From Alphaproteobacteria bacterium (GTDB lineage: Bacteria; Pseudomonadota; Alphaproteobacteria; CAAHEQ01; UBA3637), in NCBI GenBank assembly GCA_017533325.1, contig JAFXIF010000044.1, forward strand, positions 4,345 to 68,344: 64,000 nt of DNA. Reading direction: 5' to 3'. The notes beneath the pieces are model-generated. The model worked only from the letters and a program-made list of their open reading frames with translations. It searched no databases and was not told where the DNA came from. Shown here piece after piece: positions 3,452 to 33,413 of this stretch. The stretch's first letter is position 1; each line of letters starts with the position of its first letter. Both the position numbers and the translations under genes were made by a program.

Positions 3452-3453
3452 GG

Positions 3454-4068: not shown

Positions 4069-4094
4069 GTTTTTGCTTCTTGTTATTATTTTTC

Positions 4095-4150: not shown

Positions 4151-4252
4151 TATATAAAAATATCAAAAAATAGAATAAAGGGGATTGTTATTTAAAAAAC
4201 AATATGTTATTATCAAAATGATTTTAACAAAAGATATTTTAAAGAGGATAAA

Positions 4253-5023
4253 ATGTTTATCAAAAAGGCAGAAAAAGCATTTTTAAAAACATACGATTCG
4301 TCTGTTTTTGAAAAATTATCAGTTACAACAGATTTGCTTGTTTTTAGTATTTCTGATTTAAAAACAAATAATTACAGAAAATTATCAAATAAAGTGATGA
4401 GTGTTTTTTTAGCGAATCGTGATCAATTCCCCTTTAAAGATTGTTGGAGTCTTCCAGGCGGTTTTGTTTCGCCAAAAGAAACATTAGAAGAAACGGCAAA
4501 ACGTGTTTTAAGAGAAAAAATACATGTGGATGATTTATATCTCGAACAATTATATACATTTGGTGAGGTTGAACGCGATCCGAGAATGAGGATTATTTCA
4601 GTCGCTTATATGGCGTTGGTTGAGAGATCAGATTTGCCTTATTCTCTTCAACAATCTGATAATTGGTTTAATATTTTTAGAGAAGATAATAAAATTATCT
4701 TGAGAAATGAAAAAGATTCAGGTGTGGAATTTGATTTAAATATGCCCTCGGTTTTAGCATTTGATCATCAAGAAATTATTAAAATTGGGTTAGAGCGATT
4801 AAAAAATAAAATTGAATATACTGATTTAGCTTTTCATCTTGTTCCAAATGAATTTACACTAACTGAGCTTCAAAATGTTTATGAATCTGTATTAGGTAAA
4901 AAACTTTTGGCTCCTGCTTTTAGGAGAAGTATCAAATCAAAAGTTATTCCAACCGGTAACATGACTTCCGGTAATGGACATAGGCCATCGGAATTATATT
5001 GTTATAAAAATAATGAAGCGTAA
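4253..5023 (+). CDS. nrtR: NrtR-like regulator (Nudix domain plus C-terminal winged-helix)
   Basis: 256 aa with Nudix signature region (LPGGFVSPKETLEETAKRVLREK) followed by ~100 aa of C-terminal extension. Divergent from the NAD salvage operon, as is typical for NrtR. Confidence 0.65.
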   Translation: MFIKKAEKAFLKTYDSSVFEKLSVTTDLLVFSISDLKTNNYRKLSNKVMSVFLANRDQFPFKDCWSLPGGFVSPKETLEETAKRVLREKIHVDDLYLEQLYTFGEVERDPRMRIISVAYMALVERSDLPYSLQQSDNWFNIFREDNKIILRNEKDSGVEFDLNMPSVLAFDHQEIIKIGLERLKNKIEYTDLAFHLVPNEFTLTELQNVYESVLGKKLLAPAFRRSIKSKVIPTGNMTSGNGHRPSELYCYKNNEA

Positions 5024-5068: not shown

Positions 5069-6274
5069 TTATAGATTTTTTCTGGGTGTGCTTTTTTTTG
5101 GGGCGTTTTTATGAGTTACATATTCGCCTTTCATGACACAGCACCACATCTGTGTTAATAAATTATTCCAGAATGAAATCGTTTGAATTGTAAAGAAAAA
5201 AGCAACATAAAAGTAAGCCCATATCAGATGCATGAATAAAAAGAAAATAATTGTTGCATGAATGGAAAGATGATGAGCAAACATGGAATAAATAATGCCG
5301 GAGGGAATGATAAAAAGGATGGATAATTTTACCCATAAAGCATGTTTTCTTGGTATTAAAATATAACAAAATGCATAAACAACCAAAATACCCAGCATTG
5401 AGGATAAAGAGGCAAGGGATTTGGCGTCTAGTAAAGCAGTGTATCCAACTTTTAAAAGCGGTAAAGCGGCGGTTTTTGTGTAATAGAATAAAATACCGAC
5501 AAGAAAGACATTAAGAATTATACCAATCCAAAATTTAATAACATACAGTGGCTTTTTTAGGCCCTGCCAAAAAGCTTTTGAAACAAGTCTAAATCTGAGG
5601 GGACCGGTTAAGACCAAGGTTAAAATTGTGAAAATATAAGATATACAGCAAATAGGAATAAGATATAAAATAGCTTGAGGTATTTGATTTGGTTCGATTG
5701 ACAAAATATTTGAAATGCCGGGCTTTTGTTTTAAAACGTTGATAACGAAACTCGACCAAAGCCAAATAATACTTGAAAACCAAGTATAGGTCGAAATAAG
5801 TAATAAAAAGGATTTGAAGATATATCTTTTAAACGAAAAAGCACCGTATGTTTGTTTTACTGATGTGAACGAAAAATAAGAGAAGAAACTAAACCAAAGG
5901 GCTTGCCAAAAGGCATACATAAAAGTTATCACCAAATAAAAATAAACACCGTCTTGAATTTTTTTGTTTTCGATAAAATAAACAAGTTGCAAAAAACATT
6001 CCGGTCGACCCCAAATAAGTCTGAACAGCATAACTAAAATTGTTGAAGCAATCAGCAAAAAAAGAAATGTTGCCATAAAGGATAGCGGACTAAATGAAAA
6101 TTTGAAAGCTTTAAAAATTGAAAATTTTTCCAAATCGATTAAAGATAAATTGGTTTGGTGAAGTTTTTGATGTTTTAAATTTAATGCTTTCTTATGGCAT
6201 TGATAAGCTTTTTCAGTTATCATGCCGTTTTTTAACATAAAATCCAAATTTTCAAGTTCTTGTCTGTCAACCAT
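5069..6274 (-). CDS. Polytopic inner-membrane protein, function unknown
   Basis: 401 aa with ~10 hydrophobic segments after a 40-aa cytoplasmic N-terminus. No recognisable catalytic motif. Confidence 0.5.
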   Translation of the reverse strand: MVDRQELENLDFMLKNGMITEKAYQCHKKALNLKHQKLHQTNLSLIDLEKFSIFKAFKFSFSPLSFMATFLFLLIASTILVMLFRLIWGRPECFLQLVYFIENKKIQDGVYFYLVITFMYAFWQALWFSFFSYFSFTSVKQTYGAFSFKRYIFKSFLLLISTYTWFSSIIWLWSSFVINVLKQKPGISNILSIEPNQIPQAILYLIPICCISYIFTILTLVLTGPLRFRLVSKAFWQGLKKPLYVIKFWIGIILNVFLVGILFYYTKTAALPLLKVGYTALLDAKSLASLSSMLGILVVYAFCYILIPRKHALWVKLSILFIIPSGIIYSMFAHHLSIHATIIFFLFMHLIWAYFYVAFFFTIQTISFWNNLLTQMWCCVMKGEYVTHKNAPKKSTPRKNL

Positions 6275-6336
6275 ACCAGTCCACCCCTCTAAACAAAGAG
6301 GACACTAGCATAAAATATTATAAAAAACAAGAAAAA

Positions 6337-6834
6337 TCAAAAAAACGGATTATACGCCCATTGAAGCAGCGCTTGTCGTTGCTTTTTTCGGCATTGAGTG
6401 TCAAATGGAAGGCAATTTTTTTCAATTTGTATTTTATGTCTTTTAAATGAGCGCCATCGTTTTATTTGAATGGCATCTATTTTCTCAATGCGTCTGCCTA
6501 AATAATATCGGCAATACCATTGAAACCACCCTCTTGGATCGGGTTCAAATATCCAGCCTTTTGATTGCCATATAAGCAAGCTTTGTCTTGATTTAACTTT
6601 AAAACAATTGCATGAAATGTCCGGTTCTTTGGGTGAAAGTTTTGCATTGGTAAACCATTCGTGTGGAAATTCATTTTGACAGTCTGTTAAATATTTCCCT
6701 TCAAAAACCCCTAACTCTAGCATTTCTTTTGGTGTTAATTCAGGTTGAAACAATGAAGAAAAATTTTTCCCTTCAGGTTCTGTTGTTTCATAAGAATAAT
6801 TTTTTTGCATTTTGTCACAACCAATTATTTTCAT
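6337..6834 (-). CDS. Hypothetical protein (Cys/Trp-rich, 165 aa)
   Basis: Intact ORF. No signal peptide and no motif I can assign. Confidence 0.4.
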   Translation of the reverse strand: MKIIGCDKMQKNYSYETTEPEGKNFSSLFQPELTPKEMLELGVFEGKYLTDCQNEFPHEWFTNAKLSPKEPDISCNCFKVKSRQSLLIWQSKGWIFEPDPRGWFQWYCRYYLGRRIEKIDAIQIKRWRSFKRHKIQIEKNCLPFDTQCRKKQRQALLQWAYNPFF

Positions 6835-7073
6835 TAAGTTAATATGGTGACTAAAAAAAATTTTTAAATAGATAAAAGTATTTTGATTTTTTTATTTTTG
6901 TATTATCCTTTTAATGTGTGTTAAAAATATAATGAATTAACCATTAAAACAACATGAGGAACGATTTAAAAAAAATGTTTTTATATTTCAATAGGAAAAT
7001 AAAAATCCGTTGATTTTTTGTCAAAAATATAGTATAATCAAGTAGTTTAATTTAAAATGGCAGCGGGATTAAA

Positions 7074-7811
7074 ATGGAAAAAAAAGAAACTCTTAATGAT
7101 GTCTCTTTTTGTTTGCGAAAAATAAAAAAAGAGGCATCTAAGAATACATTGCAATCAGGTGTTTTTGAAAATGTATTAAAACTATCTTACTTGTTGATAA
7201 GAGCGTTGGATAATAAAAAAACAACAACATTGGAAATAAAGAAGCAATTATTACAACTGGATGTATCCGGTGTAAAATTTTCTCCTTTTGTAAAGCGGTT
7301 TGTTCTTCAAAATTTACCTCTTTGTATAAAGGAAATTTCGCCTGTGGATGAAAGAGAAAATAAAGTATTAAAGTGGATGCATCATAGGGCTTTAACCGAT
7401 AAAACATTATTGCATATTGATTTTGTTGAATATAAAAGAAGTCTTGCAAAAAATTTTGATTCCTCTGATAAAGATGACTTTTTAAGTATTTGTTCTGTAA
7501 CTGAACAATTAATTTCTTCCGATTCTAAAAAAACATTGTTTAAATCTCCGGATGCTCGTATTCGTGAAATTGAAAATGATACTTTTATTAATGTATCTGA
7601 AGGCGTTAGAAACGCTATAAAAACCGGTTTGTTTTTCTTTAAAAGAGAAAGAATTCATTTATCACATAAACAAACGCCTGTTTGGGTGGAAAATTATGCG
7701 CTTTTGAAAAAAATGTGTCAAAAATATTATGTTGATATGTCGTCAAAGGCAAAAAAATCTCCATCTAATAGTAAAAAAAATGGGTTAGGGAATGAGAGGG
7801 TAAAATCATGA
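7074..7811 (+). CDS. Hypothetical protein (245 aa)
   Basis: Its stop overlaps the start of the next ORF by 4 nt (ATGA), suggesting translational coupling with the 1204-aa protein. Confidence 0.4.
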   Translation: MEKKETLNDVSFCLRKIKKEASKNTLQSGVFENVLKLSYLLIRALDNKKTTTLEIKKQLLQLDVSGVKFSPFVKRFVLQNLPLCIKEISPVDERENKVLKWMHHRALTDKTLLHIDFVEYKRSLAKNFDSSDKDDFLSICSVTEQLISSDSKKTLFKSPDARIREIENDTFINVSEGVRNAIKTGLFFFKRERIHLSHKQTPVWVENYALLKKMCQKYYVDMSSKAKKSPSNSKKNGLGNERVKS

Positions 7812-10800
7812 CAAATAAAAAAAACAGTTTGCTGCCGTTTAATATAATTTTTTTAGATGAACCGTTACCTTCTTGTTTTCATCAACGAAGCGGAATGACT
7901 TTTAAAGATCTTTTATCCGTTATTGGACGTGAATTTAAAAATACATATGTTCAAGGTCAACGCGCTGAAAGAGGAAAGAAAAAGGAACAGGTTCAAAATA
8001 ATGAAATTTCCAGAAAAGAGATTTTTGATAAAATTCGAGAAGAACTTGGGGACTCGGAATATGAAAGATTTCTTTCTGTTTTTAAAGATTTAGAAACGGA
8101 AACGGATTACCAAGCATTAAAAAGTAGTGCTTATATCGGAAATTCAAAAAATGCCAGAAATCACATGGGGGCAAATAATCTTTTGGAATGGATGTTCAGT
8201 GCTGATGGCAGAATTGATGCTTGTTTTATCCAAAAAGACGGGGTTAAATTTATCTTTATTATGGATGTGCGGTTGAGTAATCATTATAATAAAAAAGATG
8301 CTCAGTTGCATGAATTAAACAGGGATATTGCAAAAGTTATTGCGGATTCTTTTGATGGCAAAAATGGAAATGATCCTCAAGGAATTTTAAAAAATGGTTT
8401 GTTAGCTTATCAACACGAGCTTTTGCAAAATACAAACACTGTTTCGGCTCAGTTTGAAACTCTTTTGATTACAATTGAACAATTAATTGCCTCAAATGAC
8501 TCTGTTCTGGAAAAGATTGAGTTGTTTAAAAGGGATTTATCTGTTTGCTTAAGACATGTATCTGAAGAAGAATTTGATAACTATATTAAAAAACGTTTAA
8601 TTACGGGGCCGATTAAGAATTATCAAAAAGAGCTTTTTGATAGATTGTATAGCTATGAATATGGGAAAGATAAATTAACAAATGAAATTGAAAATACTTT
8701 TACCGGTATTCAGGCTGTTAAAACATTGGCGCCGTCATTTTTTAACAGAGTAAAGGATTTACTTGAAAAAGAGGAAAATGAAAAAACAGAACGTGAATGG
8801 GCTCAAGATACATTAGATTGTTTCCGTGTTTTTCACAAAATATCTCCGTCATATATCTATATCTTAGAAGAAGAGATTGATGATTTTTGTTCTGATATCG
8901 AATCGGATGAATTAAAACAACAGCTTGAATATTTTGTTGGAGAATTAAAAAATTTAAAAGTAAATTATCGGTTTGTTGATGGGAATTCCCCTTATAAAGA
9001 ATTTAAAAAACTTCTTAACAATGCTAAAAAGTCAAGATTTCAACCATTAAATATGGGTGAAAATGTTCTTGAAAAAAAAGATGTTTTGGTTGATTTATTA
9101 AAAACGGACATTTCAGAATTAGCTGATTTAAAGGCTGTGGATAAAATTGCTGCAGCTTTAATTAAAATTATTGTTGAAGAAGAGTATTCTTCTGTTTCGG
9201 AGTTTGTTCAAGAACATAAATCTTTAATCCCGTCTGCAAATAAAAACAGCGTTTATAGACAAGTTCCAAATCCGGAAAATACGTTTAATGCTTTGTTAAG
9301 AGAAATTTTAAAAAACAAAAAAATTCAATCTAATTTGTGTCAAAAATATCCATATTTAACTGAATATGTTGACCAGCTTCAAAAAGAAGGAGTTGTAACT
9401 TCTCAAGATGAGTTAAATACGATATGCGAATATTATCGGGAGTATGCTTATACAGGAGATGAGGAGTTTTTTGTTGAGGCTAACAAAGTGTTAAAAACTA
9501 TGCCTGAAGCAAAGCGCTCGTTATATAAAGGCTATCTGCAACATGTTTATTCTCTGTCCCCTGAAAATTCGGAAATTTTGGAATTGGCAACCGGTTCGTT
9601 GAATATTATTGATGAACTGAAGCGCATTGAAACCATTAAAGATAAAATAGAAATAAGTTTAGGGCAGGAAGAAAAGAAAATCACCCCAATACAACAAAGT
9701 GGCAGATTTGCTTTTGAAAATATTTTTAGCGATTTTTTAATGGATATGGGAAATGTTGATTTATATGAAGAATTGCAATCAAAAGCAGCTCAATTAACTC
9801 AAACTGATTTAGAAGAATTAAGAAAAGCTGATGGTGAAATAGGTGAATTTATCAAGGATTATATTAAATATTCTTCAAAAAAGAAAAAACCGGCTTTTTC
9901 AACATTGATTGAAAATGTTTTAAAACGTGAAGAAATAAAACGAAGAGAACGTTTTGAACAAGCACTTTCTAATTATTTTGTTTCATTAGATCGTAAACAA
10001 GCTAAAACAGATTTAGGGTTAAGTTGTTTAACTCTTGAACCGAAAGATGTTGATTATTTTCTTACAAAATGGAAAGCAAATGAAAAACAAAATGAATTAA
10101 AAATTTTATTTTTGCAAACATATAAAGCTTCTTCATTTGAAATAGCAATGAAAAGAATTGATACTAAAATTATTAAAGAGAAAAAAGCCATTTTAGATGC
10201 ATTTATAAAACAATATCATGAGATTATTAAGGAGGGAAATAAAGATAATTTAAATGATTTTGTTCAATTTATCCTTCAACTAAAAAATGTTGATTTAGAT
10301 ATGTTGACGTATATTCATGAAGAGCAAGAAAATGCACAAGTTTGTTCTTTTTTAGAGAATATTAGTAAGATAAAATCAAAAAACAACAAAAATGCAACAA
10401 AAGAAATTCAAGAGATAATTCTAAGCACTGAAAGACGGTCAGGCTTTAAACAAAAAATGTATGATTATTTTATTAAAAACCCTGGAGAAGAAACAAAAGA
10501 AATCTTAATACGGGACATTTTTAATTTGAATAAATCAGATATAGATGCCTTTTTCAGTGATAACACAAACAGTCATCCGTTCAAACTGTTTTTTGGTAAA
10601 TTACGTAATTTGAGAAACAAATTAAAGGCGCAAAATATGGAAAACGAAGTGTCTAATATAATAGATGCAACAAAACGGCGCTTGTATTTTTATAATACCT
10701 TATATAGCTATTTGCATAATGCCGAGGCAGATAAGTCCCAGGCTGAAGTTTTGGCGGATTTTTACTTAGCGTTAACACCTCAAGATCAAAAAGATATTGA

Positions 10801-11422
10801 GCAGGAACAATCAAATCAGATGCTTTTCCCTGTTTTATTTTCAAGATTAAATGCAATTAAAAAAGAAACAGGTAATGATAAACAAGAAATTGTAAACTAT
10901 TTTGTAAATAATCGTTGGGAACAAGATTTTTACTTTGCTTTTGATATGTTGCATCGTGAGGATGGTTTATTACCATCCAAAGAAGACAGAATGGTTTTTG
11001 TTTCTATTTTGTCGACATTAAATTTTGATCAGGCATATAGTTTATTGCTTCAAAAAGATGTTAAAAAGCCAAAGGCTTTATCAAGTGGTTTAAAAGATAA
11101 ATGTTTTATTGATGCTTATACTGAGTTTATGGATGATCAAACAAATGATGAGGCGCAAAAACGTTTGAAAAATATTTCTGGTATGTTAACTTTGCCGGAT
11201 GTTAAAACCATGCTTGATAAGGCTGATGACCCAAAAATGGTTGATTATTTGTTCAGATTATATGAATGTTTGAATATGTCAATTTCTCCTTTACAAAAAG
11301 AATCTGCTGTTCATAGGGCTATTACAGGTTTTATTAACAGAGCTAATCATAACATGGTTCATGATTTGAAGGGCGTTAATTTATCTATGTTAAGAAATGG
11401 TGGAATGGGACCAAAAGAATAA
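7808..11422 (+). CDS. Large hypothetical protein (1204 aa, soluble, alpha-helical/K-E-rich)
   Basis: Long uninterrupted ORF with coding-like composition. No signal peptide, TM segment or known motif. Candidate secreted effector (inference). Confidence 0.5.
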   Translation: MTNKKNSLLPFNIIFLDEPLPSCFHQRSGMTFKDLLSVIGREFKNTYVQGQRAERGKKKEQVQNNEISRKEIFDKIREELGDSEYERFLSVFKDLETETDYQALKSSAYIGNSKNARNHMGANNLLEWMFSADGRIDACFIQKDGVKFIFIMDVRLSNHYNKKDAQLHELNRDIAKVIADSFDGKNGNDPQGILKNGLLAYQHELLQNTNTVSAQFETLLITIEQLIASNDSVLEKIELFKRDLSVCLRHVSEEEFDNYIKKRLITGPIKNYQKELFDRLYSYEYGKDKLTNEIENTFTGIQAVKTLAPSFFNRVKDLLEKEENEKTEREWAQDTLDCFRVFHKISPSYIYILEEEIDDFCSDIESDELKQQLEYFVGELKNLKVNYRFVDGNSPYKEFKKLLNNAKKSRFQPLNMGENVLEKKDVLVDLLKTDISELADLKAVDKIAAALIKIIVEEEYSSVSEFVQEHKSLIPSANKNSVYRQVPNPENTFNALLREILKNKKIQSNLCQKYPYLTEYVDQLQKEGVVTSQDELNTICEYYREYAYTGDEEFFVEANKVLKTMPEAKRSLYKGYLQHVYSLSPENSEILELATGSLNIIDELKRIETIKDKIEISLGQEEKKITPIQQSGRFAFENIFSDFLMDMGNVDLYEELQSKAAQLTQTDLEELRKADGEIGEFIKDYIKYSSKKKKPAFSTLIENVLKREEIKRRERFEQALSNYFVSLDRKQAKTDLGLSCLTLEPKDVDYFLTKWKANEKQNELKILFLQTYKASSFEIAMKRIDTKIIKEKKAILDAFIKQYHEIIKEGNKDNLNDFVQFILQLKNVDLDMLTYIHEEQENAQVCSFLENISKIKSKNNKNATKEIQEIILSTERRSGFKQKMYDYFIKNPGEETKEILIRDIFNLNKSDIDAFFSDNTNSHPFKLFFGKLRNLRNKLKAQNMENEVSNIIDATKRRLYFYNTLYSYLHNAEADKSQAEVLADFYLALTPQDQKDIEQEQSNQMLFPVLFSRLNAIKKETGNDKQEIVNYFVNNRWEQDFYFAFDMLHREDGLLPSKEDRMVFVSILSTLNFDQAYSLLLQKDVKKPKALSSGLKDKCFIDAYTEFMDDQTNDEAQKRLKNISGMLTLPDVKTMLDKADDPKMVDYLFRLYECLNMSISPLQKESAVHRAITGFINRANHNMVHDLKGVNLSMLRNGGMGPKE

Positions 11423-21305: not shown

Positions 21306-22571
21306 TTATTGATTCATACTTTCAAAAAATTCGTCGTTTGTTTTTGTTTGTTTTAATTTATCCATTAAAAATTCCATGGAATCTGTAACACCCATTGGCA
21401 TTAAAATTCGGCGCAAAATCCAAACTTTCGGAAGTTTATTTTTATCAACAAGCAAATCTTCGTTTCTTGTTCCGGATTTGATGATATCAATAGCCGGGAA
21501 AATGCGTTTATCAGAAACTTTTCGATCCAAAATAATTTCGGAATTACCTGTTCCTTTAAATTCTTCAAAAATAACTTCATCCATTCTGGAGCCTGTTTCA
21601 ATTAATGCTGTTCCGAAAATAGTGAGAGAACCTCCTTCTTCAACATTTCTGGCAGCACCAAAGAAGCGTTTTGGTTTTTGAAGCGCATTTGCATCAACCC
21701 CACCGGTTAAAACCTTTCCTGAACTTGGAATGACGGTATTATAAGCGCGGGATAAGCGCGTAATCGAATCAAGTAAAATAATAACATCTTTTTTATGTTC
21801 AACCAATCGTTTTGCTTTTTCAATAACCATTTCGGCAACTTGAACATGGCGAACGGCAGGTTCGTCAAAAGTTGAGCTGATAACTTCTCCTTTGATTGAG
21901 CGAATCATATCCGTCACTTCTTCTGGTCTTTCATCAATAAGCAAAACAATTAAATGAGCTTCCGGATGATTTTTTTCAATGGAGTGGGCAATGTTTTTTA
22001 ACATCACTGTTTTCCCTGTTCTTGGAGGAGCAACAATCAAACACCGTTGTCCTTTACCTTGTGGACAAACAAGGTCGATAATTCTTGGCGTTAAATCTTT
22101 AGAAGCTTTCGGATCGCCATTGCCATATTCCATAACAATCGGTTGATTTGGATAAAGTGGAGTTAAGTCGTCAAAATTAACGCGATAGCGCAATTCTTCC
22201 GGTTCTTGATAGTTAACGGTATTAATTTTTGTAAGTGAAAAATATTTTTCACCATTTTTAGGAGCAATAATTTCGCCGATAATTGTGTCGCCGGTTCTTA
22301 ATCCCCATTTTTTGATATGGTGTGGTGCCACATAGATATCATCAGGACCGGCCAAATAATTGGCTTCGGCGGAACGTAAAAAACCAAAACCATCTGCCAT
22401 GACCTCTAAAACCCCTTCGCCTATTAAAGACGCTTCGGATTCAGAAAGCTTTTTTAAAATGGCATACATTAAGTCTTGAGTTCTTAAGGATGAAGCGTTT
22501 TCAACTTCTAATTCTTCTGCATAGAGCAATAACTCGGCAGGAGTTTTCTTCTTTAAATCATTAAGTTGCAT
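21306..22571 (-). CDS. rho: Transcription termination factor Rho
   Basis: 421 aa with an N-terminal RNA-binding domain and a RecA-type ATPase carrying Walker A PRTGKT. Confidence 0.9.
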
Positions 22572-22767
22572 GTGAACCTTATATAAAAAATGGGAAAATA
22601 AAAATTAAGGATAACTCGAATTGGCATAAACAGATGTGGCCAAATTCCATAATATATATCTTAGCTGAAAAAAGTTTATCTGTCAACGAAATAATTAAAA
22701 ATAACTGGACTTTAATGCTTTTTTATGGGAAGATATAAAGACTGACGAATAAAGAAGGGGTGTCAAA

Positions 22768-23907
22768 ATGGAACTTTGCGAATATCAAAATAAAAGGTTA
22801 CTCCGAGATAATAAAATCCCCGTTTTAAAAGGGGGGGTAGCCTATACGGTTGAAGAGGCCGTTCAAATCGCATCAGATATGAATGCTCAAAGTTATCGAT
22901 TGCATGTTCAAATTCCGCAAGGCGAAAAAATTTTAAAATATATTCCCTCCGTTAAAGGAAATTTGGATGCTCATTCAATAGAAGAAGTTGAAAAGTTGGC
23001 AACCAAGTTATTTCAAACAAAAGTTGTTACCATATCTAATCGAGAATATCCGGTTCAACGAATTTATATTGAAGAATTATGTCAAATTGAAAAAAGATTA
23101 TCATTTTCAATGAGGGTTGACACGCAAAAACAAAAGATGATTTTTTCATTTTTTTGCAAAAAAAAGAAGAATATGGAATGTGAAATTCCTTTGAAAAAGC
23201 CAACGGTTTTGTTTTGGTGCCGACTATTAAAAATTTTTGAATTTCAGGGGATGCAAAGTGCTGCTTTATTGCCGATTTTGAAAAATATGTATTCCTTTTT
23301 TATGAAATACAATGTTGTTTTTATGGAATTTGATCCGTTGGTTTTAACCAAAGAGGGAAAGTGGATTGTGCTTGATAGCCAAATCCAATTTGATGATGAA
23401 GCCTTGTTTTTGCATCCTGAAATTTCTAAATTAAGAGAAACGCCGAAAGGTGAGGAATCTCAAGAAAGGGCGCGTCTTTATAATTTCAGATATTTACCGT
23501 TTGACGGGAATATCGCTTGTTTGGTTAATGGGTCGGGTTTAGGGGCGGCCACAATTGATATGATTGTGGAGCACGGCGGGCGACCGGCTTGTTTGTTGGA
23601 TGTTGGAACCGAACCGACAAAAGAATCGGTTTTTCAGGCCTTGAAATTAGCTTTAAGCGAGCCGAATGTTGAGGGTATTTTTGTGAATATCTTTGGTGGA
23701 ATAACCCGTTGTGATGTGATTGCGGACGGATTAATTTCCGCTTCTCAGGAAATATCGGTTGGTATGCCTTTAGTTGTTCGTATGGATGGAACGAATGCTT
23801 TGGTTGGGTCAAGGCTTCTTTTTGATTCGCGTTTACCTCTCATTGTGATGAAGGAATTTGATGAGGCTGTTAAAACGATTATTAAACAGGTGGAGGATTT
23901 GTTATGA
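22768..23907 (+). CDS. Succinyl-CoA synthetase beta-subunit-like protein (divergent, ATP-grasp motifs degenerate)
   Basis: Aligns along its length to SucC, with NIACLVNGSGLGAATIDMIVEHGG and NIFGGITRCDVIADG blocks retained. The N-terminal ATP-grasp GGRGK-type loop is absent. Confidence 0.55.
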   Translation: MELCEYQNKRLLRDNKIPVLKGGVAYTVEEAVQIASDMNAQSYRLHVQIPQGEKILKYIPSVKGNLDAHSIEEVEKLATKLFQTKVVTISNREYPVQRIYIEELCQIEKRLSFSMRVDTQKQKMIFSFFCKKKKNMECEIPLKKPTVLFWCRLLKIFEFQGMQSAALLPILKNMYSFFMKYNVVFMEFDPLVLTKEGKWIVLDSQIQFDDEALFLHPEISKLRETPKGEESQERARLYNFRYLPFDGNIACLVNGSGLGAATIDMIVEHGGRPACLLDVGTEPTKESVFQALKLALSEPNVEGIFVNIFGGITRCDVIADGLISASQEISVGMPLVVRMDGTNALVGSRLLFDSRLPLIVMKEFDEAVKTIIKQVEDLL

Positions 23908-24758
23908 CGATTAAATTTCCTAACAAAAAAACGCCGATTTTGTATCAAGGAATTACAGCAAGTTCCGGAGCAACCCATGTTGAAAAAGCAATTTTTTATG
24001 GTTCAAATGTTGTTGCCGGTGTCAGTAAAGATAAATCGGTTACAATGTTTCAAAATGTGCCTGTTTTTCAAACGGTAAGAGATGCCGTAAAAAAAACAAA
24101 ACCGCAAATCAGTGTTATCTTTTCAAGTCCGCAACGGGCACTTCAAGATGTTGAGGAGGCGGCAAAGGCTAGAATTCCTTTAATTATATGTCCGACAAAT
24201 CATGTGCCTTATAAAGATGTGTTGGAAATGAAACAATTAGCTCTCAAATATAAAGTGGAACTGATTGGTCCTTCAGCGCCGGGTCTTGTAACGCCGGGGC
24301 AATCGGTTGCAGGAACGGTGCCAGCACATTTGTTTCATAAAGGTAATATCGGAATTGTTTCAAGATCAAGCTCGTTAACATACGAAACCGTGCAACAATT
24401 AGCCAAATATGATTTAGGAGTTTCCTCATGTGCAGCTATTGGGTCTGCTGCAATTCTTGGAACGGGGTTTATTCCGATTATTGAGGCATTTTTAAAAGAT
24501 AGTAAAACAAAAGCCATTTTAATTATCGGAAAGGCATCCGGTGATTTTGAATATGAATTGGCGCATTATTTAAAAAAGAAAAAACATTCAAAAAAAATTG
24601 CACTTTATATTCCAGGTCGTTTTTCAAAAGATGATGAAATTTCTTTAAAAGAAAAAGCGCTTGAAAAGTGTGGCGTTTATATTATTCGTTCCGGTGGAGC
24701 TATTGGAAAAGAAATTAAAAAAATTATAGAGGGAGAAAATATGAACAATGAAGCTTGA
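23904..24758 (+). CDS. Succinyl-CoA synthetase alpha-subunit-like protein lacking the phosphohistidine loop
   Basis: CoA-binding N-terminus (ILYQGITASSGATH) and GIVSRSSSLTYE are conserved. The MGHAGAI catalytic His segment is deleted. 4-nt overlaps with both neighbours. Confidence 0.6.
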   Translation: MTIKFPNKKTPILYQGITASSGATHVEKAIFYGSNVVAGVSKDKSVTMFQNVPVFQTVRDAVKKTKPQISVIFSSPQRALQDVEEAAKARIPLIICPTNHVPYKDVLEMKQLALKYKVELIGPSAPGLVTPGQSVAGTVPAHLFHKGNIGIVSRSSSLTYETVQQLAKYDLGVSSCAAIGSAAILGTGFIPIIEAFLKDSKTKAILIIGKASGDFEYELAHYLKKKKHSKKIALYIPGRFSKDDEISLKEKALEKCGVYIIRSGGAIGKEIKKIIEGENMNNEA

Positions 24759-25290
24759 AGAAATTCTTGTTACAAAAATGAGTCATGATTTAGCTGGTGC
24801 TGTTGGTGCATTGGATAATATGGCTGACTTGATTTTAATGGATGACTCATTTGTAAAAGAAGGGGGAATGTTGTTGAAGAAAACAACATTTACTTTGATT
24901 TCAAGATTAAAATTTTTTAGAGCTCTTTTAGGTATTGAAACAAAAATTGATTTTGAATTAGCTGATAATTATTTAAAAACACTTTCAAGTCCGATTGCTC
25001 TTGAAGGGGATATTTCAAAAAAACTTCATTTGATGTTTGTTTTGTTGGCGGCCTCAATTTTGATTGACGGAGGGTCTTTACAAATCAGTGATGAAGGGTT
25101 TGTTTGTATGGGAAATATAACTATTTCTGATGAAAAAAAATTTCATCTGTTAAATCGTTCAACAAATTTAAATATTGATAATGCATTATGGGTTTGGCTA
25201 TCGAATTGGATGATTGAAAATAAATTAAAAGCAGATATCTATCATGCCGGAGATGTTTTTTCATTGAGGTTTTTGTCTGAAACTTTGTAA
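24748..25290 (+). CDS. ChpT-like histidine phosphotransferase
   Basis: N-terminal LVTKMSHDLAGAVGALDNMADLIL matches the ChpT H-box region (LAARLCHDFISP..G.LDLL). 180 aa. In an operon after the sucCD-like pair. Confidence 0.5.
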   Translation: MKLEEILVTKMSHDLAGAVGALDNMADLILMDDSFVKEGGMLLKKTTFTLISRLKFFRALLGIETKIDFELADNYLKTLSSPIALEGDISKKLHLMFVLLAASILIDGGSLQISDEGFVCMGNITISDEKKFHLLNRSTNLNIDNALWVWLSNWMIENKLKADIYHAGDVFSLRFLSETL

Positions 25291-25398
25291 AATATCTTTG
25301 AAATAAAATATTTTTGCTTGATTTTTTTAACTTTTTTTGGCATACTCTACCTCCGATAAACATAGGAAACATTTTGTTATAAAGTAAGGAAAAGAAAT

Positions 25399-28300
25399 AT
25401 GTCACAACAAAAATATTATCCACAGTTAAATTCGCGTATCAGTTTTCCCGAAATGGAAAAAGAAATAATTGCTTATTGGGAAAAAGAAAAAACATTCCAA
25501 AAGTCGATTGATATTCGAAAAGAAGCCGAAGAATTTGTTTTTTATGATGGACCTCCGTTTGCAAACGGATTACCCCACTATGGGCATATTATGATTTCCT
25601 ATGTTAAAGATACAATTGCCCGTTTCCAAACAATGAACGGTAAGCGTGTTGAACGTCGTTTAGGGTGGGACTGTCATGGTCTTCCGGCAGAAATGGCCGC
25701 GGAAAAAGAGTTGGGTGTTTCCGGTCATAAAGCCATTGAAGAATTCGGTATTCAAAAATTTAATGATTTTTGTCGCACAAACGTTTTAAAATATTCAACG
25801 ATTTGGACAGATATGTTCCGCCGTATCGGTCGTTGGGTTGATTTTGATAATGATTATAAAACGATGGATCTTTCTTTTATGGAATCCATTATCTGTAACT
25901 TTAAACAATTATATGATAAAGGATTGGTTTATGAAGATTATCGTGTTCAACCATATTCTTGGTGTGCTCAAACACCGGTTTCAAATTTTGAAGTGAACTT
26001 GGGCTATCGTGATAAAACAGATACGGCGATTACAGTTTTGTTTAAACTTGAAAATGACATGAATATTCTTGTTTGGACAACAACACCGTGGACACTTCCT
26101 TCAAACTTAATGTTAGCGGTTGGTGAAGATATTGAGTATGCCGTTATGCAAGAAGGTGATGAAAAATATATTTTAGCCGAAGCTTTGCTTGGAAGATATA
26201 AGCAACAATTACAACATGCTGAACGTGTTGGAACAATGAAGGGTTCAGAATTGGTTGGGCTTTCCTATACGCCAATGTTCCCTTATTTTAAAGATTTGAA
26301 AGAAAAGGGTTGCTTTAAAGTTTTAAAGGGCGAATTTGTTTCTGTTGAAGACGGAACGGGTATTGTTCATATTGCTCCTGGTTTTGGTCAAGATGACTTT
26401 GATGTATGTCGTTCACTTAATCCGGAATTTCCGGTTGTTTGTCCGGTGGATGAAGCCGGGTGCTTTACTTCAGAAGTCCCAGATTATCAATCCAGACAAG
26501 TTTTTGATACAAACGAAGACATCATGACTTGGTTAAAAGAAAATCGTCTTTTGGTTAAAAAAGAACAAATTACACATAGTTATCCATATTGCTGGAGAAC
26601 AGATACGCCGCTTATTTATAAAGCAATGAGTGGTTGGTTTGTAAAAGTTTCTGATTTCAGAGATGAAATGGTTGCTTTAAATGAACAAATCACATGGACG
26701 CCGGATCACCTTAAAAACGGTCGTTTCGGAAAATGGCTTGAAGGTGCAAGAGATTGGTCAATTTCAAGAAATCGTTTTTGGGGAACACCGATTCCTGTTT
26801 GGAAATCCGATAATCCTCAATTCCCCCGTATTGATGTTTTTGGATCAATTGAAGAAATTAAGGAAAAAACAGGAATCGAAGTTAAAGATTTGCATCGACC
26901 GATTATTGATGATGTGGTTTACCAAAATCCGGATGATCCTTCAGGAAAAACGATGATGCGTCGTGTAACGGATGTTTTTGATTGTTGGTTTGAATCAGGA
27001 TCAATGCCGGAAGGACAATTGCACTATCCATTTGAAAATAAAAAATGGTTTGAAGAACATTTTCCGGCGGATTTTATTGTGGAAGCCATTGACCAAACAC
27101 GCGGTTGGTTCTATACACTTCATGTTTTAGGAACAGCCCTTCATCATAAACCGGCGTATAAAAATTGTTTATGCACAGGGTTGATTATGGCCGAAGGTGG
27201 CGTGAAGCTTTCTAAAAAATTAAAGAACTATCCGGATCCTTATGTTGTTTTAGATTCAATGGGTTCCGATGCTCTTCGTTGGTTCCTTGTTTCTTCACCG
27301 GTTATTAAAGGTGGTAACGTGATGATTGACCAAGAAGGGAAAGAAGTTTCAAAAGCTGCTCGTAAAGCATTAATGCCACTTTGGAATGCTTTTTATTTCT
27401 TCTGTTTATATGCCAATGCTGAGGGAATTAAAGCAACTAAAACTGTTGGTTCAGATGATGTGTTAGACAGATATATTTTATCCAAAGTAAAAGTTTTGGC
27501 ACAAGATGTTAAAAAGTCAATGGAAGAATATGATATTAACCAAGCCTGTGCTGATTGTGCTGAATTTTTGGATATTTTAAACAATTGGTATATTCGTCGT
27601 TCACGCACTCGTTTTTGGGATGGAACTGATTTAACAGCCTTTAATGTTTTATACACTGTTTTAATCACAATTGCAAAAGTGATGGCTCCGTTAATGCCAA
27701 TGATGTGTGAATATGTGTATCGTTCATTAACGGAAAAAGAATCCGTTCACTTAAGATCATATCCGGATGTCAGCGCTTTAACTCAAGACGTTGAATTGAT
27801 GGAAAAAATGGATTTAGTGAGAACAATTTCTTCAACAGCAAAGGCTATTCGTGAAGAACATCGTTTGCGCAATCGTTTGCCATTGCGTTCAATGACGATT
27901 GCCGGTACAAGTGTTGAAAAGCTTTATGAATTTGCAGAAGTTTTAAAAGAAGAAGTCAACGTTAAAGATATTGTTTTCAAAACAGATATTAATGAAGTGG
28001 CTGATACATTCCTTTATTTGAAAACACCGCTTATCGGAAAAAGATTAGGTCGTTTTATGAAGGATATTATGGCTGAATCCAAAGGAAATAATTGGAAACA
28101 AAATGAGGACGGAACTTTGTCAATTGCAGGTCAAATTTTAACTCAAGAAGAATATGAATTACGTCTTGTTTTAAAAGAAGGATTGCAAGGTCAAGCTTTA
28201 CCGGATAATACCGCTGTTATTCAATTAGACACACAAATTATTCCGGAACTTGAAAAAGAAGGAATTGCCAGAGATTTTGTCCGTATGATTCAATCTTTAA

Positions 28301-28506
28301 GAAAAGAAAAAGGGTTTGATGTTTCAGATCGTATTCAATTAACTTATACAACTGATTCTTCGTTGGTCAAAGAAGCGATCGCCGAACATGAAGCTTATAT
28401 TAAGGATCAAGTTTTGGCCGTTGAAATTAAAGAATCCACTGACTCTTTATTTAAACAAGAAGAGTTGGGCGATTCAAATATTTCATTTGATGTTATAAAA
28501 AATTAA
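25399..28506 (+). CDS. ileS: Isoleucyl-tRNA synthetase (type 2)
   Basis: 1035 aa with HIGH-type motif PHYGH and KMSKS-type KLSKKLKN. Eukaryote-like type-2 architecture. Confidence 0.9.
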   Translation: MSQQKYYPQLNSRISFPEMEKEIIAYWEKEKTFQKSIDIRKEAEEFVFYDGPPFANGLPHYGHIMISYVKDTIARFQTMNGKRVERRLGWDCHGLPAEMAAEKELGVSGHKAIEEFGIQKFNDFCRTNVLKYSTIWTDMFRRIGRWVDFDNDYKTMDLSFMESIICNFKQLYDKGLVYEDYRVQPYSWCAQTPVSNFEVNLGYRDKTDTAITVLFKLENDMNILVWTTTPWTLPSNLMLAVGEDIEYAVMQEGDEKYILAEALLGRYKQQLQHAERVGTMKGSELVGLSYTPMFPYFKDLKEKGCFKVLKGEFVSVEDGTGIVHIAPGFGQDDFDVCRSLNPEFPVVCPVDEAGCFTSEVPDYQSRQVFDTNEDIMTWLKENRLLVKKEQITHSYPYCWRTDTPLIYKAMSGWFVKVSDFRDEMVALNEQITWTPDHLKNGRFGKWLEGARDWSISRNRFWGTPIPVWKSDNPQFPRIDVFGSIEEIKEKTGIEVKDLHRPIIDDVVYQNPDDPSGKTMMRRVTDVFDCWFESGSMPEGQLHYPFENKKWFEEHFPADFIVEAIDQTRGWFYTLHVLGTALHHKPAYKNCLCTGLIMAEGGVKLSKKLKNYPDPYVVLDSMGSDALRWFLVSSPVIKGGNVMIDQEGKEVSKAARKALMPLWNAFYFFCLYANAEGIKATKTVGSDDVLDRYILSKVKVLAQDVKKSMEEYDINQACADCAEFLDILNNWYIRRSRTRFWDGTDLTAFNVLYTVLITIAKVMAPLMPMMCEYVYRSLTEKESVHLRSYPDVSALTQDVELMEKMDLVRTISSTAKAIREEHRLRNRLPLRSMTIAGTSVEKLYEFAEVLKEEVNVKDIVFKTDINEVADTFLYLKTPLIGKRLGRFMKDIMAESKGNNWKQNEDGTLSIAGQILTQEEYELRLVLKEGLQGQALPDNTAVIQLDTQIIPELEKEGIARDFVRMIQSLRKEKGFDVSDRIQLTYTTDSSLVKEAIAEHEAYIKDQVLAVEIKESTDSLFKQEELGDSNISFDVIKN

Positions 28507-28668: not shown

Positions 28669-29355
28669 ATGCGTATTTTACTTATCGAAGACGACAAAAC
28701 GGTTAGTCAAAATATCTCATTGATTTTAAAAAGAGAAAATATTGTTGTGGATTGTTCTTTCAAAGCGGAAGATGGCCTTGAAGATGCAAAACATTATGAA
28801 TATGATTTAATCATTTTAGATTTAGGGTTGCCGGATATGGATGGATGTGAAGCTATTCGGAAACTTCGCGGTATGCAAATTTCAACACCGGTATTGGTAT
28901 TATCCGGAATGGCGGCAATTGATAAAAAAGTGAATGCTTTAGCTTTTGGTTGTGATGATTATTTGACAAAACCTTTTGATACCAGAGAATTGATTGCAAG
29001 AATTAATGCACTTGTCCGCCGTTCTAAAGGCTATTGCGAAAATGTTATTCGAACCGGCGATATGGAAGTGAATTTAAATTCAAAAATTGTAACCATAATG
29101 GGAAAAACGCTTCATTTAACAAGTAAAGAATATGCTCTTTTTGAGTTGCTTGCTTTAAGAAAAGGGGCAACAATTAATAAAGAACAATTTTTAAATCATC
29201 TTTACGGAGGAATGGATGAACCGGAAGGCAAAATCATAGATGTTTTCTTGTGTAAAATTCGCCGTAAGATTGAAAAAATATCCCCGGAAGAAGAATATAT
29301 TCAAACTGTTTGGGGTAGGGGATATATTTTAAAAGATTTGCCCGTTCTTCAATAA
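28669..29355 (+). CDS. ctrA: Cell-cycle response regulator CtrA (OmpR family)
   Basis: 228 aa. The receiver and winged-helix domains track Caulobacter/Brucella CtrA closely (MRILLIEDD, LSGMAAIDKKVNALAFGCDDYLTKPF, LIARINALVRRSKG). Confidence 0.8.
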   Translation: MRILLIEDDKTVSQNISLILKRENIVVDCSFKAEDGLEDAKHYEYDLIILDLGLPDMDGCEAIRKLRGMQISTPVLVLSGMAAIDKKVNALAFGCDDYLTKPFDTRELIARINALVRRSKGYCENVIRTGDMEVNLNSKIVTIMGKTLHLTSKEYALFELLALRKGATINKEQFLNHLYGGMDEPEGKIIDVFLCKIRRKIEKISPEEEYIQTVWGRGYILKDLPVLQ

Positions 29356-29402
29356 AAAATAAAGTTTTTTATAAAAAGTATTTTTATCTTTTAGCCAATA
29401 AC

Positions 29403-29440
29403 AAAAAACGCCTTCTTAAAAAAGAAGGCGTTTTCGTTTG
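29403..29440. terminator. Bidirectional terminator between ctrA and the OMP gene
   Basis: CGCCTTCTT(aaaaa)AGAAGGCG flanked by an A-run and T-run. Confidence 0.6.
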
Positions 29441-29455
29441 AACACTTGTTCTTAA

Positions 29456-32804: not shown

Positions 32805-33413
32805 TTAATAGCCTGCGTTTTTTAAATAGTTATATATTGTTTTAGAACTAACGCCTAATCTTTGAGCAATTTTTGTTTTGGCAAGGCCTTGTTTGTAAAG
32901 CAAGATAATCTCTCTTTCTTTTCCGTCGAGAATATGTTTTTTATTTTTTGAACCGGGGGTGCGACCAAGTCGTTTCCCTGTTGATTTTAATCTTGCCAAA
33001 GCTTCTTTTGTTCTTTGACTGATTAAATTTCTTTCAATTTCAGCAGAAAGGGAAAAAGCGAATGCTAAAACTTTACTTTGGATGTCGGATCCTAAACGGT
33101 AATCATCTTTAACAGTCCAAACTTTAATATTGCGCTGCATACAATAATTTAAAATAGTCATAACTTGAAAAAGATTTCGACCTAATCTTGAAATTTCAGT
33201 GCAAATTAAAATATCACCTGCTTTTAATTTTTTGATATATTTACCAAGTTTTCGAAATTCAACATCTTTTGTTCCGCTGACTGTTTCGCTTATCCAACCG
33301 GAAATTAAAATATTTTCTTTTTTTGCGAATTCAATAAGTTCAAATTCTTGATTTTTGTGAGTTTGCTTATCTGTGCTAACACGAATATATGCATAATTCA
33401 TATCCATCTCCAT
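32805..33413 (-). CDS. Serine recombinase (resolvase/invertase family)
   Basis: N-terminal catalytic YIRVSTDKQ with Ser nucleophile, plus a C-terminal HTH (KTKIAQRLGVSSKTIYNYL). The start could be ATG 33401 instead. Confidence 0.85.
   Translation of the reverse strand: MEMDMNYAYIRVSTDKQTHKNQEFELIEFAKKENILISGWISETVSGTKDVEFRKLGKYIKKLKAGDILICTEISRLGRNLFQVMTILNYCMQRNIKVWTVKDDYRLGSDIQSKVLAFAFSLSAEIERNLISQRTKEALARLKSTGKRLGRTPGSKNKKHILDGKEREIILLYKQGLAKTKIAQRLGVSSKTIYNYLKNAGY

Follow-up and report, generated by a model that had tools for sequence, protein, structure and literature searches.

The 64 kb stretch of alphaproteobacterial DNA analyzed here (the window) harbors three consecutive genes on the same strand, encoding homologs of the beta and alpha subunits of succinyl-CoA synthetase (SCS) and a short histidine phosphotransferase resembling ChpT, together with a conserved promoter-like block, flanking genes annotated with Pfam, and ctrA (Table 1). 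The first two genes resemble sucCD (E. coli structures 1SCU/2SCU, pig 2FP4) in their full-length homology, in their beta-then-alpha order and in their overlapping stop and start codons, the sucD-like ATG overlapping the sucC-like stop codon by 4 nt (ATGA). The overlap between the sucD-like and chpT-like genes, read from the sequence and computed, spans 11 nt (24748-24758); the preliminary description had given 4 nt for both junctions, which is correct for the first but not for the second. Its placement of ctrA 3.4 kb downstream agrees with the 3.38 kb measured from chpT to the ctrA start. The product of this gene contains receiver and Trans_reg_C domains and scores 327.5 bits against the NCBIfam CtrA model (cut-off 350), and CtrA is the expected phosphorylation target of ChpT. 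Neither CckA nor CpdR was found within the 64 kb, and exact-protein look-ups of three other window proteins, performed for flank annotation, returned no match.

Table 1. Features at the sucC-like/sucD-like/chpT-like locus (window coordinates)
Feature	Coordinates	Strand	Description
rho	21306..22571	-	Divergent, variable upstream flank
Conserved promoter-like block	22697..22734	+	Upstream of operon; invariant alignment columns
sucC-like	22768..23907	+	Intact ORF, 379 aa, SCS beta-subunit homolog
sucD-like	23904..24758	+	Intact ORF, 284 aa, SCS alpha-subunit homolog
chpT-like	24748..25290	+	Intact ORF, 180 aa, short histidine phosphotransferase
ileS	25399..28506	+	Variable downstream flank
ctrA	28669..29355	+	Response regulator; context, outside operon

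The promoter-like block (AAAAATAACTGGACTT ... TTATGGGAAGAT) comprises columns that show no variation when the rho/sucC-like intergenic regions of nine species (SucD identity as low as ~54%) are aligned. We infer from this conservation a putative promoter role, possibly with an extended -10 element. A TGTCAA at ~22680-22687 corresponds to the -35 of a predicted divergent rho promoter on the other strand, where a TTGACA-17-TAAGAT match was located at 22686-22658. A consensus scan for promoters and terminators over positions 22400-25500 yielded no excess over shuffled controls and, apart from a single weak match, no terminator within the operon, and an Rfam search of the whole window returned only three tRNAs, with no riboswitch upstream. 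The TTAA-N7-TTAA CtrA box, which has a background density of 0.09 per kb, does not occur within 300 nt upstream of the sucC-like gene in the window, nor in this interval at any of 46 loci, for which reason we do not assign the operon to the CtrA regulon.

Both members of the pair are recognizable SCS subunits. The SucC-like protein matches the NCBIfam SucC model with 282.9 bits over model positions 1-386 of 388, and the SucD-like protein matches the SucD model with 234.1 bits; unlike SucCD, both fall below the equivalog cut-offs (370 and 336, respectively). Their best PDB matches in phmmer searches are SCS chains (E 2e-59 and 6e-51), and the Pfam families ATP-grasp_2, Ligase_CoA, CoA_binding and Succ_CoA_lig are all matched across the pair. 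These end-to-end matches bear out the preliminary description of two full-length SCS homologs with intact ORFs. The AlphaFold model of the SucC-like protein (pLDDT 89.4) has only SCS beta chains as its top PDB matches (TM 0.72-0.80), indicating that, as modeled, the beta subunit retains the SCS fold.

Catalytic elements present in SucCD have been lost in both subunits. In the window SucD-like protein, a 16-residue deletion removes the 'RMGHAGAI' loop, as the preliminary description had proposed, and with it the phosphohistidine (M-G-H-A-G-A; His246 in E. coli). This histidine is absent from every member of the clade in which the pair is found, also where the loop itself persists, and a sister lineage carries asparagine at the same position (YMGNIGAIV). 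Three further motifs are altered in the window protein (GEIGG to GKASG, GIGGDP to AIGSAA and GFTGSQG to GITASSG). The first of these changes replaces the catalytic Glu208-alpha with lysine; Lys, Gln, Asp or Glu occupy this position elsewhere in the clade, and the glutamate has been lost in most of the main clade and retained in the His-to-Asn sister lineage. The last affects the CoA-binding Rossmann motif G-x-T-G-x-x-G, in which the glycine at the fourth position is alanine in the window ('GITASSG') and serine, threonine or alanine in most relatives, with glycine in few. Pro40 and Cys123 are altered as well.

The beta subunit, correctly aligned, has its ATP-grasp P-loop replaced, which accords with the loss that had been suggested for it. 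The canonical KAQVHAGGRGKAGGV becomes HVQIPQGEKILKYIPSVKGN, with loss of the loop glycines; the glycine-rich loop for nucleotide phosphates (A-G-G-R-G-K) thus reads HVQIPQGEKILKY in the window protein, and Lys46 is replaced by histidine. The loop glycines are absent across the whole clade, while Lys46 is retained in most members and is histidine in the window subclade. Loop sequence varies from subclade to subclade. A graded series runs from the canonical alphaproteobacterial AGGRGKGKFVEPEAG (L060) through SSGRALGKF (L057), TSDRAKRFF (L062) and DGCKCRGFF (L065) to PQGEKILKY in the window. Sequences of the L060 type, with their 'GKGKFVEPEAG' insert, suggest that the pair may descend vertically from the sucCD of the TCA cycle. 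Within the clade, mean identity is 33% in the beta ATP-grasp domain versus 57% in the C-terminal domain, a ratio of 0.59 that compares with 0.73 in canonical SCS. Several elements persist, including, as in SucCD, the alpha/beta interface motifs and the catalytic Glu197 ('MEFDPL'), along with Asp213 and the NGxGLG and FGGI(T)RCD motifs; since these are retained, some ligand binding or residual chemistry is possible.

The protein encoded by the third gene is a ChpT by both profile and fold, in line with the likeness noted in the preliminary description. Its His13-Asp14 pair, located in the segment 'SHDLAG' of the first DHp helix and containing the predicted phospho-accepting histidine, is invariant in alignments of 21 and 39 orthologs and aligns with the 'CHDIISP' and 'CHDFISP' segments of Brucella and Caulobacter ChpTs, and a profile of the 21 orthologs matches Brucella ChpT (4QPJ) with an E-value of 2.5e-12. 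In a Foldseek comparison with the PDB, the seven best matches of the AlphaFold (AF2) model (pLDDT 93.6) are all ChpT structures (E ~6e-10, TM 0.73-0.78), followed by sensor kinases with TM < 0.5. Like the solved ChpTs of Caulobacter (CC_3470, 4FMT/4FPP) and Brucella (4QPJ/4QPK), it presents a DHp-like helical hairpin with the H-D-L motif and a degenerate CA-like alpha/beta domain, and it has ctrA nearby. It differs from them in length (178-182 aa versus 205-250 aa) and shares only 16-18% identity with them; the window protein falls short of the Pfam HPTransfase (PF10090) gathering cut-off (18.3 versus 22.9 bits), with 12 of the 21 orthologs matching this family at E ≤ 0.01 (best 9.6e-7), and its gene, unlike classical chpT genes, shares an operon with a dead SucCD pair.

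The pair, with intact ORFs and the same losses, was identified in at least 42 GTDB species representatives and in several metagenome contigs, the metagenome search being run with a five-sequence ChpT alignment. The carriers are species-level metagenome-assembled genomes from mammalian gut and rumen, with SucD identity as low as 43%, and they place the pair in a deep alphaproteobacterial clade of the gut and rumen. At least part of this clade has genomes of ~1 Mb, as is the case for UBA3768, the source of one of the loci (L035), which is reported among small-genome rumen Proteobacteria, order not given (PMC6785717). The clade could not be linked to the GTDB order Rs-D84, which is reported to lack both the TCA cycle and respiration (PMC12306168). 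Across 18 pairwise comparisons, dN/dS ranges from 0.03 to 0.19 for the sucC-like gene and from 0.03 to 0.20 for the sucD-like gene, with 0.02-0.06 for ileS, revealing strong purifying selection on the pair. No inactivating mutations were found in relatives, and over 50 independent contigs carry intact ORFs. Alignment, relatives and dN/dS thus all favor the proposal, put forward in the preliminary description, that these are conserved pseudoenzymes and not the product of simple decay.

No feature of the locus is more stable than the linkage to chpT. The sucC-like, sucD-like and chpT genes are contiguous in 35 of 41 informative species, with sucC/sucD overlaps of 1-4 nt and sucD/chpT spacings of -14 to +10 nt across loci. 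The flanks have been reshuffled, and rho and ileS border the triad in only about half of the loci: rho adjoins it in 18 of ~39 related species and ileS directly follows chpT in about half of them. The His-to-Asn sister lineage also presents the triad, which there either adjoins ctrA or precedes a receiver gene and cheR. Signaling genes gather at the locus in other subclades, comprising a receiver gene with cheR, a PP2C phosphatase gene and, in one subclade where it has been added upstream, the diadenylate cyclase gene cdaA. Canonical alphaproteobacterial sucCD genes, in contrast, reside in mdh-sucCD-sucAB TCA operons devoid of chpT; the canonical relatives inspected (P0093 and P0349) are other organisms with full TCA operons, and classical high-GC chpT genes have no sucCD neighbor. 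Beside a distant ChpT-like protein, the 286-aa protein encoded upstream of P0345 in L054 proved not to be SucD-like (hhalign probability 0.3%), and that lineage lacks the linkage.

The chpT gene is missing from the locus in the remaining six informative species (L026 and L030-L034). In L030 and L031 the pair lacks any flanking phosphorelay gene, and in L032 the upstream side of the locus is cut off. The subclade formed by L026, L033 and L034 carries instead an upstream gene encoding a DivK ortholog (Caulobacter DivK 1M5T, E 1e-40), which overlaps the sucC-like start by 4 nt in L033 and L034 and lies 8 nt upstream of it in L026. On the neighbor-joining tree, chpT-linked loci are found at the base of the clade; the divK-associated subclade is derived and has exchanged linkage to chpT for linkage to divK. 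The pair is hence tightly linked and translationally coupled to chpT or, in this one subclade, to divK.

The cell cycle of the Alphaproteobacteria has the CckA-ChpT-CtrA phosphorelay as its core circuit, and ChpT is usually seen as a passive shuttle that lacks partners of its own. The maintenance of the catalytic losses almost always in one operon with ChpT suggests that an old metabolic enzyme is now a signaling partner. We put at about 0.5 the probability that the two proteins constitute an SCS-derived, non-catalytic alpha-beta complex long retained in partnership with the CtrA cell-cycle phosphorelay and, jointly, that they no longer work as an NDP-forming acyl-CoA synthetase, since the pair has neither a phosphohistidine as phosphate carrier nor a glycine-rich loop for nucleotide phosphates. 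The best conserved parts of the pair are the beta C-terminal domain and the interface and former phosphohistidine-pocket segments of alpha, and the best conserved segments (alpha IGIVSRSSSLTYE, beta NIACLVNGSGLG and beta 'NIFGGITRCD') are those that we take, from the known structure of SCS, to make up the interface and the phosphohistidine pocket; for this reason, the SucC-like and SucD-like proteins probably still form an alpha/beta heterodimer. Gene linkage, the sole tie between the pair and the phosphorelay, suggests that this heterodimer may bind ChpT (or DivK) and tune the flow of phosphate from CckA through ChpT to CtrA/CpdR, serving either as an adaptor or scaffold or, through what is left of site I, as a small-ligand sensor. 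A single coupled mRNA would yield a fixed stoichiometry with ChpT, as would befit a stable complex.

Decay of sucCD into ordinary pseudogenes within a reduced genome would account for the active-site losses, which are real, and would fit the ~1 Mb genomes of part of the clade, but it is refuted by ORFs that remain intact under dN/dS values of 0.03-0.2 and by losses common to lineages only 43% identical, leaving it with a negligible likelihood. It is also conceivable, if rather doubtful, that the linkage is merely historical, with the dead pair fulfilling some other non-enzymatic or structural role that has no relation to the phosphorelay and its adjacency to chpT reflecting ancestral gene order. 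Gene order is all that connects the pair with ChpT, L030 and L031 retain the pair with no phosphorelay neighbor, and no CtrA box lies upstream; yet the overlap or near-abutment of the sucD-like and chpT genes persists down to 43% SucD identity and into the sister lineage while the flanks are reshuffled, the subclade that has lost chpT has coupled the pair to divK, a gene of the same network, and further signaling genes (cdaA, the receiver gene with cheR, and the PP2C phosphatase gene) have accrued at the locus in other subclades.

Somewhat less probable still is that the pair remains an enzyme with altered chemistry, for instance a CoA- or succinate-dependent reaction involving neither phosphohistidine nor nucleotide, and that chpT is co-transcribed with it solely for co-regulation. 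Strong purifying selection is compatible with this explanation, as is the survival of site-I elements (Ser-Arg-Ser in alpha; NGxGLG, FGGIxRCD and Glu197 in beta). In L048, L050 and L051, moreover, 'SRSSSLTYE' occurs beside an intact MGHAG loop, and this substitution is therefore compatible with catalysis. To our knowledge, though, the phosphohistidine, which all members of the clade lack, is used throughout the characterized NDP-forming acyl-CoA synthetase superfamily; Glu208-alpha is gone from most of the main clade (the sister lineage keeps it), the CoA-binding GxTGxxG, Pro40, Cys123 and GIGGD are altered, and a nucleotide loop that differs between subclades is unlike a conserved catalytic loop. 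Even more remote is a purely speculative arrangement in which the ChpT histidine would dock in the retained phosphohistidine pocket of the pair, taking the place of the lost loop. Phosphate could in that case be exchanged at site I between ChpT and either an acyl-phosphate or Pi, or the pair could read or protect ChpT~P; by reading, shielding or even chemically charging or discharging ChpT~P, it would directly wire CtrA phosphate flow to a metabolite (succinate, CoA or Pi, for instance) in bacteria that seem to have abandoned the TCA cycle. In both subunits, the segments with the highest conservation do form the SCS phosphohistidine pocket, and the element lost is a phosphohistidine carrier, which is also what the coupled gene encodes, but the ChpT histidine belongs to one helix of a four-helix bundle and not to a mobile loop, and site I has lost Glu208-alpha in most members, along with the alterations in CoA-binding residues.

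Parallels to the proposed partnership of the pair with the phosphorelay exist in Caulobacter, where catalytically inactive or moonlighting metabolic-enzyme homologs participate in cell-cycle control. These include the oxidoreductase-like KidO, acting on DivJ and FtsZ, GdhZ, and CitA, a citrate synthase paralog that acts on the cell cycle independently of catalysis. As would be the case here, judging from linkage, a central-metabolism scaffold has been recruited to the CtrA/DivK network; KidO, GdhZ and CitA are single-subunit proteins found genetically, whereas the present system is a two-subunit pair, and we know of none among them that is derived from SCS or whose gene shares an operon with chpT or divK. 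The N-terminal NDP-forming acyl-CoA-synthetase-like domain of Pat/PatZ, which lacks the catalytic histidine, is likewise a superfamily member without phosphohistidine serving as a regulatory or ligand-binding module, and the SucD-like protein weakly matches PDB entries 9ISQ/9IT0 ('Protein acetyltransferase'; E 1.2e-5). That domain, however, belongs to a single polypeptide fused to a GNAT domain, with no phosphorelay link, in contrast to the two-gene alpha/beta pair described here. A search of the published literature on SCS in connection with ChpT, CtrA, DivK or the term 'pseudoenzyme' returned nothing relevant.

A whole lineage of uncultured gut and rumen Alphaproteobacteria encodes ChpT within a translationally coupled operon alongside a pseudoenzyme of two subunits whose ancestor was a TCA-cycle enzyme. 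Were the pair to bind ChpT or DivK, it would represent a new kind of input to CtrA control and would clearly exemplify the conversion of a heteromeric metabolic enzyme into a signaling module. The graded intermediates leading from the canonical form through the His-to-Asn form and the rewritten loop to the deleted loop would provide the order of events. The genes are currently annotated as 'succinate--CoA ligase' or 'hypothetical protein', and present annotations can falsely credit these genomes with the SCS step.

The three genes of the triad lie in a window of ~33% G+C with several markers typical of Alphaproteobacteria (MipZ, CtrA and a VirB-type type IV secretion system, T4SS), and a GGAG-type Shine-Dalgarno sequence can be read before each start codon. 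A divergent rho gene lies upstream, and ileS and ctrA follow downstream, the latter starting 3.38 kb past the third gene. The preliminary description of intact ORFs, with ctrA 3.4 kb downstream, is confirmed; its 4-nt overlap at both junctions holds for the first (ATGA) and fails for the second, where the overlap is 11 nt. The rho/sucC-like intergenic region probably comprises two back-to-back promoters, judging from its sequence, and the surroundings of the operon yielded no CtrA box, riboswitch or convincing terminator.

Features of the triad and its upstream region (window coordinates)
Feature	Position or length	Strand	Details
Promoter-type match for rho	22658-22686	-	TTGACA-17-TAAGAT, 10/12 match
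Conserved promoter-like block	22697-22734	+	Invariant blocks AAAAATAACTGGACTT and TTATG-GAA--T across the rho/sucC-like intergenic regions of nine species
sucC-like/sucD-like/chpT-like ORFs	22768-25290	+	Three intact ORFs
First ORF (SCS beta-like)	379 aa	+	
Second ORF (SCS alpha-like)	284 aa	+	ATG overlaps first stop codon (ATGA, 4 nt)
Third ORF (ChpT)	180 aa	+	11-nt overlap with second ORF (24748-24758)

Both proteins of the pair align end to end with subunits of succinyl-CoA synthetase (SCS), scoring below the NCBIfam equivalog cut-offs (beta, 283 vs 370 bits; alpha, 234 vs 336 bits). Residues were compared by aligning the pair with SCS of known structure and with sequences from E. coli and of canonical alphaproteobacterial enzymes. 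The beta protein presents PQGEKILKYIPSVKGN in place of the glycine-rich loop AGGRGKAGGV and, in the window, His at Lys46; it retains Glu197, Asp213, NGxGLG and NIFGGI(T)RCD. In the alpha protein, a 16-residue deletion takes out the phosphohistidine loop RMGHAGAI, and GEIGG (Glu208), GIGGDP and the CoA motif GFTGSQG are changed to GKASG, AIGSAA and GITASSG, respectively. Full-length homology and the loss of both the ATP-grasp and the MGHAGAI loops, as initially proposed, stand after correct alignment, and activity as a phosphohistidine-based NDP-forming synthetase is excluded for the pair. Fold was modelled for the beta protein only; AlphaFold gave a confident model (pLDDT 89.4), which over its full length matches SCS beta chains (TM 0.72-0.80). 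Mean identity is 33% in the beta ATP-grasp domain vs 57% in the C-terminal domain, and this gap in constraint is larger in the clade than in canonical SCS.

The third protein belongs to a short-form family (178-182 aa) annotated as 'hypothetical protein' in its sources. Taken alone, its Pfam HPTransfase match is marginal (18.3 bits vs a cut-off of 22.9), and 12 of 21 orthologs match this family. A profile built from the 21 orthologs recovers Brucella ChpT (4QPJ; E 2.5e-12) and Caulobacter ChpT (~1e-5), His13-Asp14 is invariant among them, and the seven best PDB matches to the AlphaFold model (pLDDT 93.6) are all ChpT structures (TM 0.73-0.78), with sensor kinases ranking far below. Profile and predicted fold thus identify the protein as ChpT, in line with the resemblance first noted.

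The exact proteins of the window recur on independent gut-metagenome contigs with identical gene order. When one genome per GTDB species was scanned, the pair turned up at 42 loci (L007-L047 and L052), all in 'Alphaproteobacteria bacterium' MAGs from the gut or rumen of mammals (yak, sheep, buffalo, roe deer, rabbit, pig and Hadza humans). UBA3768, the source of one of these loci (L035), is among the rumen Proteobacteria with ~1 Mb genomes (PMC6785717), and absence of the TCA cycle and respiration has been reported for Rs-D84 (PMC12306168), a gut alphaproteobacterial order cited for comparison and not equated with the clade. SucD identity to the window ranges from 87% down to 43%. The catalytic histidine and the beta loop glycines are missing in 42/42 loci, and DVGGGA reads DVGTEP as a clade signature. 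Most members retain the alpha loop length, reading K-x-P-(V/L)-(V/L)-G, the deletion being confined to the closest relatives of the window. Neighbor-joining on concatenated SucC and SucD yielded a monophyletic clade with chpT-linked loci basal. The clade profile, searched against 1.8 billion cluster representatives, returned only a handful of high-scoring clusters, followed by canonical enzymes. One such cluster (P0348) defines a sister lineage with a near-canonical alpha loop, His replaced by Asn (YMGNIGAIV) and GEIGG kept, and a graded series of beta loops leads to the window sequence from the nearest canonical alphaproteobacterial SucC by profile (L060), which carries the insert AGGRGKGKFVEPEAG.

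Nei-Gojobori dN/dS, the check proposed at the outset, was 0.03-0.19 for sucC-like and 0.03-0.20 for sucD-like genes over 18 pairwise comparisons, demonstrating purifying selection on the pair. Values were ~0.03-0.2 for chpT (rising to 0.4-0.5 for the window vs L011 and L015, where divergence was greatest), 0.02-0.06 for ileS and ~0.01 for rho. The shared losses at 42 loci, the depth of divergence and the low dN/dS uphold the earlier view that this is not simple decay: the pair is a deep, selected family, and plain pseudogenization is effectively refuted.

Other SCS-like pairs were found outside the clade. Two are degenerate and not linked to chpT: one with alpha His replaced by Tyr ('YNMGYASDI') and GKADN (L059:797-2874), and one that retains the alpha His but not the beta loop, Lys46 or Glu197 (L053:8937-10837; INTA.CYC.063), adjoining a gene for a 1148-aa ankyrin-repeat protein. 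Three from high-GC Alphaproteobacteria (L048, L050, L051), which entered the scan only through the shared SRSSSL pattern, have intact MGHAG and AGGRGK loops and also carry 'SRSSSLTYE', 'TERIPV', 'DIRPEA' and 'NLCGGGILRCD'; these motifs probably mark a functional acyl-CoA synthetase subfamily rather than classical SucCD.

No genomic property of the pair is more stable than its translational coupling to ChpT, for which DivK has substituted once. The chpT gene lies directly 3' of sucD-like in 35 of the 41 species with a readable downstream side, typically at -4 nt and at most at +10 nt, and all loci show an overlap of 1-4 nt between sucC and sucD. The flanks vary, with rho upstream in 18 of ~39 loci and ileS after chpT in about half. 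The His-to-Asn sister lineage also has the triad; there, a convergent ctrA abuts chpT in one locus (L057), and in two others (L061:1381-2546 and L062:5519-6705) an overlapping receiver-domain gene (117-119 aa) and then a cheR methyltransferase gene come after chpT, with cheR confirmed by Pfam in L062 only, where the receiver (Response_reg, 34 bits) has a weak acidic pocket. A derived, monophyletic subclade (L026, L033, L034) has no chpT at the locus and carries immediately upstream of the pair a DivK ortholog (E 1e-40 against Caulobacter DivK; next-best PleD, 1e-20), which shares 4 nt with sucC-like in L033 and L034 and is separated from it by 8 nt in L026. In a further subclade (L035-L044), a gene for a membrane-anchored CdaA-type diadenylate cyclase (Pfam DAC, 136 bits; L038:7936-8802, for example) directly precedes the pair on the same strand in 10/10 loci; c-di-AMP synthases are uncommon in Alphaproteobacteria. 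One species has a PDC sensor-HAMP-SpoIIE/PP2C phosphatase gene directly 3' of chpT (L041:11428-13305). As controls, canonical alphaproteobacterial sucCD loci are sdh/mdh-sucCD-sucAB-lpd operons with no chpT, sucCD is absent from nine classical high-GC ChpT loci, and in another lineage of gut MAGs a more distantly related ChpT-like gene (202 aa) shows no sucCD linkage.

Purifying selection and coupling to chpT or divK point to a repurposed regulatory or scaffolding pair, as originally suggested. We give roughly even odds (about 0.5) to its retention as an alpha/beta complex acting with ChpT/DivK in the CtrA network. This complex would still form, given that the best conserved parts of the pair are its interface and site-I motifs, and might serve as adaptor, scaffold or ligand sensor. 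Alternatively, the linkage could be historical and the role of the pair unrelated to the phosphorelay, an unlikely reading to be set beside variable flanks and a sucD/chpT spacing that never exceeds +10 nt. Less likely still is an enzymatic activity of another kind, in proteins that keep Glu197 and Asp213 and lack both catalytic loops. That the ChpT histidine, invariant among orthologs, is used in trans within the old phosphohistidine pocket appears quite improbable.

The pair belongs to the SCS superfamily by homology but fails its defining catalytic features, and annotation as 'succinate--CoA ligase' should be avoided. Its nearest functional analogies are the Pat/PatZ acetyltransferases, whose synthetase-like domain is His-less, and KidO, GdhZ and CitA, Caulobacter regulators derived from metabolic enzymes; none of these is known to be SCS-derived or in an operon with chpT or divK. 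Full-text literature searches for SCS together with ChpT, CtrA, DivK or 'pseudoenzyme' returned nothing relevant.

Elsewhere in the window, a strain-variable insertion hotspot lies just 3' of ctrA: relative to window positions 29356-29455, the L002 strain (8575-9977) has extra YrbL-PhoP_reg and resolvase genes between ctrA and an outer-membrane-protein gene, and a further resolvase gene occurs at 32805-33413 (-). A compact NAD salvage cluster (162-5023), consistent with a nutritionally dependent lifestyle, encodes a PnuC-type NMN transporter, NadE, nicotinate phosphoribosyltransferase, cytidylyltransferase-like (NadD-type) and isochorismatase/PncA-like proteins, and an NrtR regulator (Nudix plus winged-helix). 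A 1204-aa ORF and several of 165-400 aa (7808-11422, +; 5069-7811 and 60119-63931, -) are without a Pfam match at E<=1e-4 or, in the case of the ORFs of 60119-63931 that precede the last one (63155-63931), at E<=1e-3. Among the T4SS genes, a giant 2207-aa VirB10/TrbI protein (48361-54984, -) carries four or more 'beta-flower' repeats (PF21785/PF21784) plus a DUF3659 domain ahead of its TrbI domain (residues 1901-2094), and is flanked by VirB11-like (47355-48344), VirB9/CagX and two VirB8 paralogs (56906-57604 and 57892-58590). The VirB9/CagX-like protein (55010-56788, -) ends in a SPOR (septal peptidoglycan-binding) domain, a fusion unusual for a T4SS outer-membrane core component. A run of five ~250-aa ORFs, the last at 63155-63931, adjoins these genes and may represent lineage-specific T4SS components or effectors.
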